Translations under genes and position numbers: made by a program
Shown here: positions 10,601 through 16,361 of the stretch, piece after piece
How positions within the stretch are numbered: the first letter of the stretch is position 1
Layout of the letters: each line of letters begins with the position of its first letter
Notes under the pieces: model-generated
Seen by the model: only the letters and a program-made list of their open reading frames with translations
What the model was told of the DNA's origin: nothing
The model's database searches: none
NCBI GenBank assembly: GCA_030614005.1
Contig: JAUWKS010000004.1
Coordinates: forward strand, 30,001-62,000
Source: Candidatus Heimdallarchaeota archaeon
GTDB lineage: Archaea > Asgardarchaeota > Heimdallarchaeia > JABLTI01
Reading direction: 5' to 3'
DNA: 32,000 bases

Positions 10601-11560
10601 ATGCATACAGAACAAGAATTGGAGATGGAAATAGAAAAAGTTCTAATTGCTGGATTAGATAATGCCGGGAAAAGCTCAATTCAAGATATATTGAAATATA
10701 TCCCAATTGAAGCTGCGCAGAGAAGAACACCGAGTAAAGATCTTGAGATATCAGAAAAAAAATTCTTAAAAAAGAAGTATATCTTTTTCATTCCACCAGG
10801 ACAAGAAGATTTACGGTTGAAAGAATTTCATGGTACAATGAAAAATGAGTATTTTGAAAATGTTAGTACGTTCATTTTTGTTGTTGATTCATCTGAAATT
10901 GAAAGAGTAAATGAAGCTAGAGAAGAGTTACAAAGATCAATTGAAGATCTAATGCTGCTTTCTCCTGAATGTAAAAAATTTATTCTTCTTGCTCATAAAC
11001 AAGATCTAGACGAAGCTGAAAATGGGTTATCTCTCAAAAAGCAAATTCTCGATCCTTTAAATCATCTTTTTCCAAATATTATTTATCAATTCAAAATATT
11101 TGAAACAACACTCTTTAGTCCTGAGACAATTCATGAACCATTTGTAAAAGTTATTGCTAAACATGTTGGTATAAATAGATTCGATTTTGATAAATTGGCT
11201 GAATGGGTTCGAAAGCAAACGAATGCTAAAATCGTTCTTGTTACTGACCCCAATGGGTTACTCATTGGAGAATCATTTACAGGTATTGAAAATTCCACTG
11301 TTTTTGCTGCTTATGTAGCAAAAATTTTCTCTGCTATTGAAGACTTTCAAGCAGATTTAGAAGTTGGAGGGATAAAAATTATTGTCCTTGAGGATGAAGA
11401 TGAGTCAAATTATAGTATAGTATCCAGAATTAATTGCACAAAAGATGATTATTTAGCACTTTTAATTGGATTTCCAAAAACGCAAATTGGGATGACGAGA
11501 ATCATAAATCGCACAGGGTTAAGTCATTTGAAGGATGCTTATAATAGCTATAAGACTTAA
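10601..11560 (+). CDS. Rag/Gtr-like small GTPase fused to a C-terminal roadblock domain
   Basis: G1 GLDNAGKSSIQ, G3-like IPPGQ, FVVDS, G4 HKQD, G5 region ETTLF; from about aa 195 a roadblock pattern (VLVTDPNGLLIGES, long helix, three strands, GM..I helix). Confidence 0.8.
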   Translation: MHTEQELEMEIEKVLIAGLDNAGKSSIQDILKYIPIEAAQRRTPSKDLEISEKKFLKKKYIFFIPPGQEDLRLKEFHGTMKNEYFENVSTFIFVVDSSEIERVNEAREELQRSIEDLMLLSPECKKFILLAHKQDLDEAENGLSLKKQILDPLNHLFPNIIYQFKIFETTLFSPETIHEPFVKVIAKHVGINRFDFDKLAEWVRKQTNAKIVLVTDPNGLLIGESFTGIENSTVFAAYVAKIFSAIEDFQADLEVGGIKIIVLEDEDESNYSIVSRINCTKDDYLALLIGFPKTQIGMTRIINRTGLSHLKDAYNSYKT

Positions 11561-11610
11561 TGAAGAAAATCAAATAAAAAAATCCAATTAATTAGACCTG
11601 GGTGTAGGTA

Positions 11611-12672
11611 ATGATTACAAGTACAAAGTTGGGCATAATTCTTGTTGAATTTGATTCACTTAAAGGACCAGTTATTCGAAATAAAAATCCAAAGAATTTT
11701 CAAATTCCAAATGAAACAAATGATGAAAATTTACTTATGTGGATATTAAGAGCAAATGAGTTCTCTGTTCGAAAAATTGGAAAGCAAACAGCATTTGCAA
11801 AAGCTATTTCTTTGGATGACCCAAATTTTCCTAGAAAGAAAAGACAGTTTGGATTAGGATTAATAGCTCAACCAACTATAGATTTGATTGAAGCAGAGAA
11901 AATCTTAGATTTAATTATTTCTACAAGTAAAAAAATAAGTAATAATAAACCATACTTTAAGATGCTAAATGGATTATTAACTTCAATTGCTAATTTCATA
12001 ATTCCAAGTGAATTCAGCAATAGTGAAACTCTATCACCTCAAGAAAGAAAACCAATGAGCAGAATTCAAAATGAAATTATTCTGAAGCAAGAAACACCAC
12101 GTATGCTAATTAGTAACAAATTTAATGTATTTCAAAAAGTAGTCATTTCTTCAAAGCAATCAAATTATACCATTTCTATTGGAAACAAAGAAACCTCCCT
12201 TGAATTAGAAAGAAATACTTCACATAAAGAAATGAGCATTTCTACAGAAAAAATGAAAATTGATGTTGTAGTTCAAAAAGATATTCCGGAGAACTTACAG
12301 ATAGGGCTAGATATTTTTTCAAGAATACTAGATGTTGTAATAGATATATCAAATATTGAGAATAGGGTAGTATCCAGTTTGGAGTTTTTGGATAGATTAC
12401 TACTTGAAGATGTTGATATTCACTATTACATGCCTTTCTCACAATACCTAGTTGCAATGGAAGCATATACCATATCTGAATTTAAAAATGAAGAAATTGA
12501 AGATCAAATTGCTAATTTCAAAGATACATACGGAGAATGGGTAGAGTGTATAATTGGAAAGGAATTTGATGGAAAAAAATTAGCTGAATTTTTCACTGTA
12601 ACAGGTATAACACGTGAGAGTTTAGAATTACTGATTGACCTATTATTTGTGAAACTTGTTGCAATCTTTTAA
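11611..12672 (+). CDS. Longin/uDENN-domain protein resembling NPRL2/folliculin-type GAP subunits, with a possible C-terminal winged helix
   Basis: N-terminal IILVEFDSLKGPVI...P and ISLDDPNFPRKKRQFGLGLI match the longin pattern of NPRL2/FLCN/SMCR8 as recalled; C-terminal FDGKKLAEFFTVTGITRESLELLIDLL is wHTH-like. GGTG-type SD upstream. Confidence 0.6.
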   Translation: MITSTKLGIILVEFDSLKGPVIRNKNPKNFQIPNETNDENLLMWILRANEFSVRKIGKQTAFAKAISLDDPNFPRKKRQFGLGLIAQPTIDLIEAEKILDLIISTSKKISNNKPYFKMLNGLLTSIANFIIPSEFSNSETLSPQERKPMSRIQNEIILKQETPRMLISNKFNVFQKVVISSKQSNYTISIGNKETSLELERNTSHKEMSISTEKMKIDVVVQKDIPENLQIGLDIFSRILDVVIDISNIENRVVSSLEFLDRLLLEDVDIHYYMPFSQYLVAMEAYTISEFKNEEIEDQIANFKDTYGEWVECIIGKEFDGKKLAEFFTVTGITRESLELLIDLLFVKLVAIF

Positions 12673-12721: not shown

Positions 12722-13582
12722 ATGACCCATTCCATCAACGAGAAGAAAGCACAATCCAATTCGATAATTATTCCAGATACGCCCGCAATAATGTTTAATG
12801 AAAAGGAATATAATAAAACATTAATTGTTTCTGATTTACACATTGGATACGTTTATGGAAGAAACACAAAAGGAATCATCCTTCCTGAATCAAAACGACC
12901 AGAAGATGATATCATTCGATTGCTTGATGAAAAACAACCAGACACGCTAATATTTCTTGGGGATTTTAAAGACGATATTTATGGAACACCACATCCAATT
13001 GCTGGAAGGATTTGGAAGTTTCTTAAACAATTAATGAAAAAGACTAATGTCATAATAATTAAAGGAAATCATGATGGGAAAATTGAAGAAATCATTCCGG
13101 AAGAAATAACTCTTATTCAACCTGAAGGATTGCTATTAACCCAAAAAGAAACAAATAAATCGATTGGTCTTTGGCATGGACATGCTTCACCAGCCTTAGA
13201 TGCATGGACAGCAGACATAACTATTTCTGCACATGCTCACCCAGCATATACTTTTCGTGATGAGATTGGATCCAAGATAACTCAAAAAGTTTGGGTAAAA
13301 GCAAAGTGGTTGAATGCCAAAGAAGGAAAACCGGATAGAATTCATATTATCATTCCCCCATTCAACAGATATATTGAAGGATATTCTGTAGATAGTGATT
13401 ATTTTAAAACAATAGTATTAATGAGAGATGCAATTGATTTTGATAATGCTGAAATATTTACTCTCGAGGGAATTTTAATTGGTACATTAAAAAATCTCCG
13501 AGAGAATAGAAGAGAACTAGAAAGGAGATTAAATACATTAAGAAAAGAAGTAAATGCTAGTAAAAAGAAAAGAAAATACTAG
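12722..13582 (+). CDS. Calcineurin-like metallophosphoesterase (archaeal ICC/COG1407-like)
   Basis: Five motifs in order: SDLH, LGD, GNHD, HGH, HAHP. AAGGAGG SD upstream. Confidence 0.88.
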   Translation: MTHSINEKKAQSNSIIIPDTPAIMFNEKEYNKTLIVSDLHIGYVYGRNTKGIILPESKRPEDDIIRLLDEKQPDTLIFLGDFKDDIYGTPHPIAGRIWKFLKQLMKKTNVIIIKGNHDGKIEEIIPEEITLIQPEGLLLTQKETNKSIGLWHGHASPALDAWTADITISAHAHPAYTFRDEIGSKITQKVWVKAKWLNAKEGKPDRIHIIIPPFNRYIEGYSVDSDYFKTIVLMRDAIDFDNAEIFTLEGILIGTLKNLRENRRELERRLNTLRKEVNASKKKRKY

Positions 13583-15077: not shown

Positions 15078-16361
15078 TTATAAATTAAATAATAATAGGG
15101 CAATGTTGCCATACAACAAATACTGAATATACCCTAAGAACATTAGAGAAACAAAAGGTATTCCAGGTGTAACCCAAACTGATTTCTTGTGTTGTTTTCT
15201 TAGCTGCCAGAGAGTTCGCAATTGTCTTTGCTCCATAACATCATCTTCATCTAAGCCCATTCTTATTTTGAGTTGCCAATCTTGAGAGTTCTTTGTAGTG
15301 TTACCATTCATTTTTCCTTTTGATGACTGACCTTCAAAATCGCCAGCTAATTTACCAATCATTTTTCCAGATAATTGACCTTCGAAAATTCCTTCAAGTG
15401 TACCAATAAAACATCCTTTAATTGGATGAGTATATCTACCATCAATATTGATTAGATATTCATTGGGTTCCAAAGCTACCTCTTCGGTTTCTTCAAAAGT
15501 TCCACGATATTTCATTAAGAGAGCAGTAACCGTTTCATCGTCATCATCATCTTTTCTGAGCTCTAATGCTTTTGTAAGACGTTCAGCTTTTGTAATAGCA
15601 TTCTCAAGAGTTAATTTCTCGAAATTTTCAGTATCAGCCAATTGAATTACTCCAATTACTTTTCCTGTAAATTCACCTATTAATTCACCATCGAAAATTC
15701 CAAGGAATTTCCCATCTAATCGACCTTCAAAGTTACCTTCAAAATTGCCCGAGAACTCCTTATCGGTGAATTCTTCTAGAAAATCAAAATGTAATTTTTT
15801 CTCATTAATTTTGCTTACAGGTTTCTTATATCCGAAGAAGAAGCATCTGATTTTTTGGGATGCAGTACCCCTTACTTCATTAAAGAGCGATTCCTTTGAT
15901 GCAGAAATAGCATTTACTACCATAAGAATTAGTGGATAGAAAATAGCTATAAGACCAGCATTCAGTAACAATGAGAATACCATTGAGTCAATAATGTTTA
16001 TTATCAATAAATCAGGTAAGTTGATGTTTACTAAATTAGTAGTAAGAGGATTAACAGGAGTAAGTATCGAGAGTGCCCAAAGTGCTTTGGTATCTGCTCC
16101 ACCCCATACACCAAGATAAAATAAAATAAAGCCTATTAAAAATCCTAAAACAACAGTAATTAGGATGAGAAGCAGAGCATTATTTTGATCCTCGGCATTA
16201 ATAACATACAAAGTATCCATTACTAATCCTATGATAACCATAAGGACCCATACTATCTCTCTTCGAACCTCTCTGTGGAGAATATCTTCAATTCCTGCAT
16301 AAAGTAAAGCAGCAAGAGTAACTGTGGGAACTATAATTGAATAAACAAGTTCGAATGACAT
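15078..16361 (-). CDS. flaK: A24-family GxGD-type preflagellin/prepilin peptidase (FlaK/PibD-like) with a large repeat-containing insertion
   Basis: First Asp motif EDILHREV, second GVWGGADTKAL, several TM helices, C-terminal VWVTPGIPFV.LM.LGY typical of archaeal A24 peptidases. 427 aa, much longer than typical members. Confidence 0.85.
   Translation of the reverse strand: MSFELVYSIIVPTVTLAALLYAGIEDILHREVRREIVWVLMVIIGLVMDTLYVINAEDQNNALLLILITVVLGFLIGFILFYLGVWGGADTKALWALSILTPVNPLTTNLVNINLPDLLIINIIDSMVFSLLLNAGLIAIFYPLILMVVNAISASKESLFNEVRGTASQKIRCFFFGYKKPVSKINEKKLHFDFLEEFTDKEFSGNFEGNFEGRLDGKFLGIFDGELIGEFTGKVIGVIQLADTENFEKLTLENAITKAERLTKALELRKDDDDDETVTALLMKYRGTFEETEEVALEPNEYLINIDGRYTHPIKGCFIGTLEGIFEGQLSGKMIGKLAGDFEGQSSKGKMNGNTTKNSQDWQLKIRMGLDEDDVMEQRQLRTLWQLRKQHKKSVWVTPGIPFVSLMFLGYIQYLLYGNIALLLFNL
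15298..15758 (-). repeat. Two blocks of tetrapeptide (F/L/I/V/M)-x-G-x repeats inside the peptidase
   Basis: Block 1 (about 15645-15755): FSGN FEGN FEGR LDGK FLGI FDGE LIGE FTGK VIGV. Block 2 (about 15298-15425): IKGC FIGT LEGI FEGQ LSGK MIGK LAGD FEGQ, then KGK MNGN. Confidence 0.85.

Follow-up and report, generated by a model that had tools for sequence, protein, structure and literature searches.

In a window of 32,000 nucleotides (nt) from a Candidatus Heimdallarchaeota genome (assembly GCA_030614005.1, contig JAUWKS010000004.1, positions 30,001 to 62,000; positions below count from the first letter of this window unless another contig or locus is named), two co-oriented genes encode proteins whose classes are known from eukaryotic nutrient signalling as a GTPase and its regulator. 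Gene A (10601–11560, + strand) is an open reading frame (ORF) of 319 amino acids (aa) coding for a GTPase of Rag architecture, with a G domain and a C-terminal roadblock domain. Gene B (11611–12672, + strand), an ORF of 353 aa, codes for an NPRL2-like longin protein and is a candidate GTPase-activating protein (GAP) for gene A. Judging from motifs, structural models and conserved gene order, we lean towards the reading that both form a cognate GTPase/GAP module, with B as the probable GAP, belonging to the NPRL2/FLCN/SMCR8 class of longins. A preliminary description of this stretch, made from its letters alone, had proposed such a pairing of co-oriented genes 50 bp apart, and the ORFs and the distance between them are as described; the two ORFs lie in different reading frames. 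The spacer (11561–11610, + strand, 50 nt) carries a Shine-Dalgarno-like sequence, GGGTGTAGGT, at 11600–11609, directly 5' of the ATG of gene B; read directly over its 50 nt, it contains no oligo-T run. The two genes are probably co-transcribed as a two-gene module.

The association of both genes is conserved well beyond the window. Gene A precedes gene B on the same strand in 18 of 18 assessable loci from three GTDB families, at protein identities down to ~15–25%. Within the GTDB family of the window, a profile of gene B is matched in all 12 genomes (that of the window included), and A lies directly upstream of B in each of the 11 genomes whose contigs are long enough, usually with a third gene, C, downstream. 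The same profile gives weak matches in one other family (2 of 5 genomes) and finds no further match among 399 Asgard genomes. Family f25 (pair in 2 of 2 loci) has a 329–331-aa GTPase, 25% identical to A, that abuts a longin of 253–261 aa with the GP motif described below. Family f24 (2 of 2 loci, found by the gene A profile) has partners homologous to the longin of B (hhalign probability 98% and 96%), one of which reads EFHPVEGP ... YSRKF and resembles NPRL2. Metagenomic contigs of the Njord type show the pair in 4 of 4 assessable cases, with gaps from +18 nt to a 26-nt overlap and in some cases overlapping stop and start codons. The tally of motif and order covers 18 of these loci, and the GP motif is present in the partners of all 18 paired GTPases. 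Across relatives the gap between A and B ranges from +61 to about −26 nt; at one locus the ORF call gave −59 nt, versus an overlap of 14 nt in the called genes.

In a phylogenetic tree, the 13 paired GTPases sampled form a single clade (97/90) that excludes all paralogues of the host genome, and the pair is therefore taken to have been inherited as a unit. A pairing that is both conserved and inherited in this way fits a cognate module of switch and regulator. The preliminary description had taken the tight pairing to suggest a switch and its GAP; the synteny across Asgard genomes, with the order kept in every assessable locus, shows that the pairing exceeds chance. The remaining neighbours vary by lineage, with rpoB upstream of the pair in the window, eIF2-gamma upstream in Njord-type loci, and differing genes downstream; the order A-B-C is kept in the GTDB family of the window and is not kept in Njord-type loci. 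We note as an aside that the pair always lies divergent beside the eIF2-gamma gene in Njord-type genomes, and beside rpoB in the window, core information-processing genes both times.

Loci of Freyarchaeia-like genomes were not counted as instances of the module. The closest homologue from this group, P0092, has no longin neighbour, and hhalign detects no similarity between gene B and the protein directly downstream of another Frey-type GTPase (probability 0.6%). In these genomes (locus L048, 1492–3541; locus L053, 1384–3557) a Gtr1_RagA-type GTPase is followed by a protein of 324–337 aa that starts with YFDAVEGVV and has an HTH_24 winged-helix match (9e-5); this protein may be an analogue of gene B that has diverged strongly. 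The sister GTPases of Frey type retain E or D in the G3 motif, reading FFECGGQ and FFDTGGQ.

The product of gene A is a GTPase with two domains. Among Pfam families it matches Arf (58.2 bits, 9e-16) and, nearly equally, Gtr1_RagA (55.9 bits, 5e-15, residues 13–215), both over their cut-offs. The match of gene A itself to Robl_LC7 is weak (0.009, residues 205–264), and 33 of the 34 members of its family match this domain, the best with an E-value of 1.3e-6. Together with the order of elements in the AlphaFold2 (AF2) model, these matches delimit a roadblock/LC7-type C-terminal domain of approximately residues 196–319 (11186–11557, + strand). The G domain is modelled with confidence, and the C-terminal order reads alpha-beta-beta-alpha-beta-beta-beta-alpha. 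In a Foldseek search, the top matches to the model are full-length RagA (6s6d_A, 2e-17), Gtr1 and the Lokiarchaeal RagA-like protein 8yl2 (2.5e-16), within a range of 2e-17 to 1e-14. Arf structures rank below Rag/Gtr and cover the G domain only (1e-11 to 1e-10), and MglA structures are absent from the top 50 structural matches. A profile of the gene A family, searched against sequences of the PDB, gives Arf1 (8e-19), LokiRagO (8yl2, 2e-16) and RagA (2e-15), and its alignment with 8yl2 spans residues 5–294, the roadblock domain included. The small GTPase with C-terminal roadblock and Rag/Gtr architecture of the preliminary description is thus recovered by profiles and by fold.

The host genome holds 26 Gtr1_RagA-like matches, three of which are paralogues that outscore gene A, and a single gene of gene A's own clade. 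In the tree, which has no eukaryotic Rag sequence, gene A does not belong to the clade containing eukaryotic Arf. Because the Arf and Gtr1_RagA scores are nearly equal, the full-length fold matches are to Rag/Gtr, three paralogues score higher and the tree has no eukaryotic Rag, we call gene A a Rag-architecture GTPase, short of a proven Rag orthologue. By sequence and model, the roadblock-bearing protein is a predicted molecular switch with the Rag/Gtr layout, and its roadblock domain most likely mediates dimerisation, by analogy with Rag proteins and LokiRagO. As a side observation, the genes with the two highest Gtr1_RagA scores in the host genome (407 aa, 116 bits; 604 aa, 82 bits) are found on contig C101 (149–3247), convergent and 60 nt apart. 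They adjoin an ORF of 1596 aa and are grouped with each other in the tree (95/91), and a Rag-like pair is one possible reading of them.

The nucleotide-binding motifs of gene A are conserved with one peculiarity. The P-loop (G1) reads GLDNAGKS (10652–10675, + strand, residues 18–25), and G18, A22, G23 and K24 are invariant among 34 homologues of gene A, as are H132, K133 and D135 of the G4 motif HKQD (10994–11005, + strand, residues 132–135). Of the 18 paired GTPases, 17 have HKQD; a G4 of the HKxD form is typical of Rags. The G3/switch II motif is non-canonical: it reads IPPGQ (10790–10804, + strand, residues 64–68), with Ile in place of the Asp of DxxGQ, and it retains the catalytic Gln68. 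Within its context FFIPPGQ, the residues F62, F63, G67 and Q68 are invariant in the same 34 homologues, and all 18 paired GTPases have a G3 of the form F[FV][IVTF]PGQ, without the Asp of DxxGQ. Gene A therefore departs from the canonical Rag G3, while HKQD and Gln68 are present. An xPGQ-type G3 without Asp recalls the G3 of MglA. Since this G3 lacks the Mg-coordinating Asp, the nucleotide cycle of gene A may be unusual, and the motif of the paired GTPases constitutes an unexplored switch variant. No arginine of switch I is conserved across the subfamilies; R41 and R42 of gene A are not kept in the Njord-type homologues.

Gene B belongs to a small family, with 49 matches in 5.8 billion proteins and 22 representative clusters in 1.84 billion; the named sources of these 22 relatives are Asgard metagenome-assembled genomes (MAGs) or MAGs labelled Korarchaeota/Thermoproteota. 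A search of the host genome with its own full-length profile finds it in single copy. Gene B has no match to a Pfam family at E-values up to 1 and none in NCBIfam. A search of Pfam with 41 family members yields scattered, non-significant matches only, among which Folliculin and Afi1 are isolated and sub-threshold, and the full-length profile returns only noise from the PDB sequences. The AF2 model (mean predicted local distance difference test, pLDDT, of 80) consists of a longin domain, a disordered linker, a beta-meander and a helical C-terminal domain. The longin domain (11611–11991, + strand, residues 1–127) has the DSSP order beta-beta-alpha-beta-beta-beta-alpha-alpha. The linker (12010–12096, + strand, residues 134–162; pLDDT 23–42) corresponds to alignment columns that vary in length and sequence. 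The C-terminal half (12100–12666, + strand; pLDDT 72–95) combines the beta-meander (residues 164–221) with the helical domain (residues 229–352).

The closest structural relatives of the longin domain are NPRL2 and its yeast counterpart. In a comparison with VIA-align, human NPRL2 chains reach Z-scores of 10.7, 10.5 and 10.3 and yeast Npr2 9.7–9.8, the best being chain 9o5d_D (Z 10.7, root mean square deviation (rmsd) 3.5 Å, 130 residues aligned). DENND1A/B, Mon1-Ccz1 and CPLANE are also among the matches (Z 8–9.4), and FLCN and SMCR8 likewise fall below NPRL2. NPRL2/Npr2 are also the top matches of gene B in Foldseek searches of the PDB, among Swiss-Prot models (human NPRL2, 5.9e-5) and in NPR2 clusters of the ESM Atlas. 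Feature-based matches in that atlas all scored below 0.9 and serve as leads only. Alignments by Foldseek 3Di with NPRL2 orthologues run over the full length, with an rmsd above 20 Å. The matches to DENND1A/B, DENND10/11, FLCN and SMCR8 are limited to approximately residues 1–150; in DENN and folliculin-type proteins, cDENN and dDENN follow the longin. Of the longin/uDENN protein that had been proposed, the longin part is therefore supported, and a uDENN beyond the longin fold is not, since matches to DENN proteins cover only residues 1–141 of gene B. The C-terminal half has no usable match in the ESM Atlas, one uncharacterised match among clusters of the AlphaFold database (residues 157–344) and, among the 41 family members, no Pfam helix-turn-helix match. 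It contains residues conserved within the family (e.g. E258, D261, Y272, Q278, Y279 and G308). The Njord-type homologues are short, and the last helical domain is absent from them.

The residues conserved in the longin domain coincide with those characteristic of GAP-type longins. The alignment comprises 23 sequences from a long subfamily (the GTDB family of the window) and a short subfamily of ~250 aa, in which the members with names are Njordarchaeota or MAGs wrongly labelled Korarchaeota/Crenarchaeota, at 17–25% identity. F14, D15, G19, P20 and R75 alone are invariant, and E13 and K76 are nearly so. They belong to two sites, the motif EFDSLKGP (11647–11670, + strand, residues 13–20), with the GP motif G19-P20 at the turn between beta1 and beta2, and Arg75-Lys76 (11833–11838, + strand) at the turn between beta4 and beta5, the candidate arginine finger. 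Searched against 177,635 distinct PDB sequences, the profile of these 23 longins returned three matches at E-values up to 10: one designed protein, and human NPRL2 in two versions of its sequence (E 0.23 and 0.26). The HMMER register places EF..GP of gene B on E14-F15..G20-P21 of NPRL2 and R75 on Arg78. A wider longin profile again has NPRL2 as its top match with the register unchanged, and the register agrees with the structural superposition of model residues 4–136 on NPRL2 residues 5–144. It is known that Arg78 of NPRL2 is the arginine finger of GATOR1 (PMC8534245). The GP motif is reported to be specific to GAP-type longins (NPRL2, FLCN, SMCR8, C9orf72) and certain Heimdallarchaeial longins, and the combined signature of GP and Arg to be absent from non-GAP longins including DENND, TRAPP and adaptin (PMC12290439). 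By its predicted fold and its motifs, gene B is an NPRL2-like longin, the link to NPRL2 being one of structure and motifs only. The NPRL2 likeness put forward in the preliminary description agrees with the GP motif and with the alignment of Arg75 to Arg78.

A regular-expression search of the host genome for N-termini resembling EFDxxxGP gives gene B and chance matches only. The only other weak match in this genome is a folliculin-family protein of 417 aa on contig C74 (locus L068, 308–3427), with a Pfam Folliculin match over the cut-off (25.2 bits) and the N-terminus RFDDRIGP. Its gene is flanked by two genes for CheY-type receivers and by a divergent Arf-type GTPase with a C-terminal extension, and hence constitutes a second neighbourhood of a GTPase and a GP-longin.

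These features suggest the following mechanism for the putative module. The longin domain of B would dock on the switch regions of GTP-bound A, with the GP turn (G19-P20) shaping the catalytic pocket. Arg75 of B would enter the nucleotide site as an arginine finger in trans and, together with Gln68 of A, would speed GTP hydrolysis and thereby turn the switch off. Gene A keeps the catalytic Gln and has no conserved arginine in switch I, which fits an arginine supplied in trans.

Several observations weigh against this assignment. On the side of the GTPase, sequence does not separate the G domain of gene A from Arf, the roadblock domain is modelled at low confidence (pLDDT 40–65 in the AF2 model), and the Asp-less G3 suggests an altered handling of Mg and nucleotide. 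On the side of the longin, Pfam NPR2 (PF06218) is unmatched by any of the 41 family members at E-values up to 10, the profile alignment between gene B and NPRL2 is sub-threshold (E 0.23–0.66), and NPRL2 stands just 1–2 Z units over generic longins (Z 8–9). Furthermore, none of the 22 proteins found by the profile search of 1.84 billion representatives is tied to a eukaryote. The eukaryotic longin GAPs act as heterodimers (NPRL2-NPRL3, FLCN-FNIP, SMCR8-C9orf72), and no second longin is present in the operon or in the neighbouring genes. Neither the genome profile nor the neighbouring genes reveal an NPRL3-like or DEPDC5-like partner. The GATOR1-type character claimed for the pair therefore holds for the catalytic subunit only. 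The connection to amino-acid sensing suggested in the preliminary description finds no support in these results, nor does any tie to TOR. Finally, longin-domain regulators are more often guanine nucleotide exchange factors (GEFs) or platforms than GAPs (PMC12290439; PMC3747258).

The last point leads to the reading in which B does partner A and acts not as a GAP, but as a GEF, a nucleotide-state-specific platform, an effector or an adaptor, comparable to DENN, Mon1-Ccz1, TRAPP or Ragulator-type proteins, with Arg-Lys binding, e.g., a membrane lipid, nucleic acid or phosphate. Such a role would agree with the prevalence of GEFs and platforms among longins and with the presence of DENND1A/B, Mon1-Ccz1 and CPLANE among the structural matches of gene B. 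The loss of the G3 Asp in A could make exchange rather than hydrolysis the regulated step, and the C-terminal half of B is conserved with no function attributable to it. We nevertheless regard this reading as unlikely: the invariant residues of B are the GP turn and the Arg of GAP-type longins, reported to be absent in DENND, TRAPP and adaptin, and by structure it matches best with NPRL2/Npr2, which are catalytic GAP subunits. The G3 motif also enters into a reading modelled on MglA and MglB, according to which the partner acts as a GAP by repositioning catalytic residues of the GTPase itself without providing a finger, and what the system controls is cell polarity or surface structures, not a pathway of the Rag type. 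The Asp-less xPGQ motif recalls the G3 of MglA. Against an MglA-like mode, the structural matches rank Rag/Gtr first and Arf next, and none of the top 50 is an MglA; no arginine of switch I is conserved between the subfamilies; and B is a longin with a conserved Arg at the finger position of NPRL2, not an MglB-type roadblock protein. This mode is accordingly improbable in our view, even though a GTPase gene followed by the gene of a regulator of the roadblock/longin superfamily is the classical prokaryotic layout (MglA-MglB is summarised in PMC10933270).

The two proteins might also take part in unrelated processes, their adjacency reflecting mere shared transcription or genome conservation. 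Synteny within one family can result from simple inheritance, and gene C is likewise kept beside B in the family of the window without an obvious functional link. The pair, however, persists across lineages that have no other neighbour in common, at identities of 15–25% between the proteins, and its stop and start codons often overlap; both protein classes, moreover, are known partners in eukaryotes. We therefore give very little credence to an accidental neighbourhood. A cognate GTPase/GAP module remains the explanation we favour. A wider evolutionary claim is possible, if doubtful: a Rag-type GTPase and an NPRL2-type longin GAP may already have formed a cognate pair, passed on together, in the ancestor that the Heimdall and Njord lineages share. 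Eukaryotes would then have inherited the catalytic core of Rag/GATOR1 ready-made, and would later have wired it to lysosomes, to NPRL3/DEPDC5 and to TORC1, with the present operon as a living minimal switch.

Downstream of the pair, gene C (12722–13582, + strand), 49 nt past gene B, encodes a calcineurin-like metallophosphoesterase of 286 aa (Pfam Metallophos 2.8e-9; NCBIfam SbcD_rel_arch 74 bits, under its cut-off), with an AGGAGG site 13 nt upstream. Gene C is probably co-transcribed with A and B in the lineage of the window and lies outside the conserved core. Its sequence and distribution would suit a lineage-specific passenger or effector, and any role in the module is conjectural. Upstream of gene A, on the opposite strand, lies the rpoB-rpoA operon of RNA polymerase. 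The preliminary description had placed the stretch in an archaeon, in agreement with the Asgard identity of the host: the genome (3.6 Mb, ~33% GC, 90% complete) has Heimdall-group relatives, labelled Heimdallarchaeota or Asgard MAGs. The DNA sequencing runs that contain the stretch are metagenomes of marine sediments and cold seeps, and no RNA run is among the listed runs containing it. Apart from these genes, the window harbours an A24 prepilin/preflagellin peptidase (15078–16361, − strand) whose two Pfam matches are split by an insert of ~230 aa with G-x-hydrophobic-x repeats.

Compared with known systems, the pair resembles eukaryotic RagA/B (Gtr1) and NPRL2 (Npr2), the catalytic subunit of GATOR1/SEACIT. 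Gene A shares with the former the G domain followed by a roadblock, an HKxD-type G4 and the catalytic Gln; gene B shares with the latter the N-terminal longin, the GP turn, an Arg at the position of Arg78 and a further C-terminal domain. The pair differs from Rag/GATOR1 in that one GTPase gene takes the place of the RagA/RagC pair, equivalents of NPRL3 and DEPDC5 were not found, and the genes form an operon; also, the G3 of gene A is IPPGQ and not DxxGQ, and gene B has no match to Pfam NPR2. The C-terminal part of NPRL2/Npr2 carries winged-helix repeats (PMC3747258). Rag/Gtr GTPases dimerise by way of their roadblock domains, bind Ragulator/EGO and control TORC1. According to Liu et al. 2020 (preprint, doi 10.1101/2020.10.19.343400), a TOR kinase is lacking in Asgards.

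NPRL2-like longins have been described in Asgards (Liu et al. 2020, doi 10.1101/2020.10.19.343400), and gene B falls into the class of Asgard NPRL2-like and FLCN/SMCR8-type longins with a GP motif (Liu et al. 2020; Traffic 2025, PMC12290439). Both accounts assign no GTPase partner to these longins, and PMC12290439 poses as an open question whether ArfR or Rag/Gtr GTPases are their partners. The ArfR preprint contains no gene-neighbourhood analysis, and full-text literature searches found no description of the pairing of A and B. The present locus differs from the earlier accounts of Asgard GP-longins in that a specific Rag-architecture GTPase is fixed beside gene B across lineages.

On the side of the GTPase, the two-domain layout of gene A is that of LokiRagO (8yl2), LokiRagM (8zla/9m28) and the GTPase-roadblock architectures of Tran et al. 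2024 (PMC10933270). In the cultured Lokiarchaeon MK-D1, small GTPase genes as a rule do not share operons with roadblock or longin genes, and their partners are unreadable from the genome (Tran et al. 2024, PMC10933270). In contrast to these GTPases, the clade of gene A sits with a longin gene and has an unusual G3. The module offers a specific answer, testable at the bench, to the question of partners raised in PMC12290439 and PMC10933270: both proteins are small, lack extra domains detectable with Pfam, and are fixed together across lineages. If a GAP activity dependent on Arg75 proves true, catalysis by longin arginine-finger GAPs on Rag-like GTPases would predate eukaryotes, and the pair would serve as a minimal model of a mechanism that has proved hard to trap in GATOR1 and FLCN.

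Two further systems combine a small GTPase with regulators of the roadblock/longin superfamily. The conserved Asgard operon of a LAMTOR1-like protein, a Rab-like GTPase and DENN (Liu et al. 2020) is similar in joining a small GTPase to such regulators; it differs from the A-B pair in that its GTPase is Rab-like and stated to be distinct from Rag, its regulator is DENN, and the whole is predicted to be a GEF module. The bacterial and archaeal MglA-MglB pairs resemble it in gene order, the GTPase gene preceding that of a roadblock/longin-superfamily regulator, which is the GAP in the case of MglB and a candidate GAP in that of gene B, and in a G3 without Asp. The differences lie in the roadblock that gene A carries itself and in gene B being a longin with a candidate arginine finger acting in trans. 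MglA has an intrinsic arginine finger, and the roadblock dimer that regulates it contributes no residue to catalysis.

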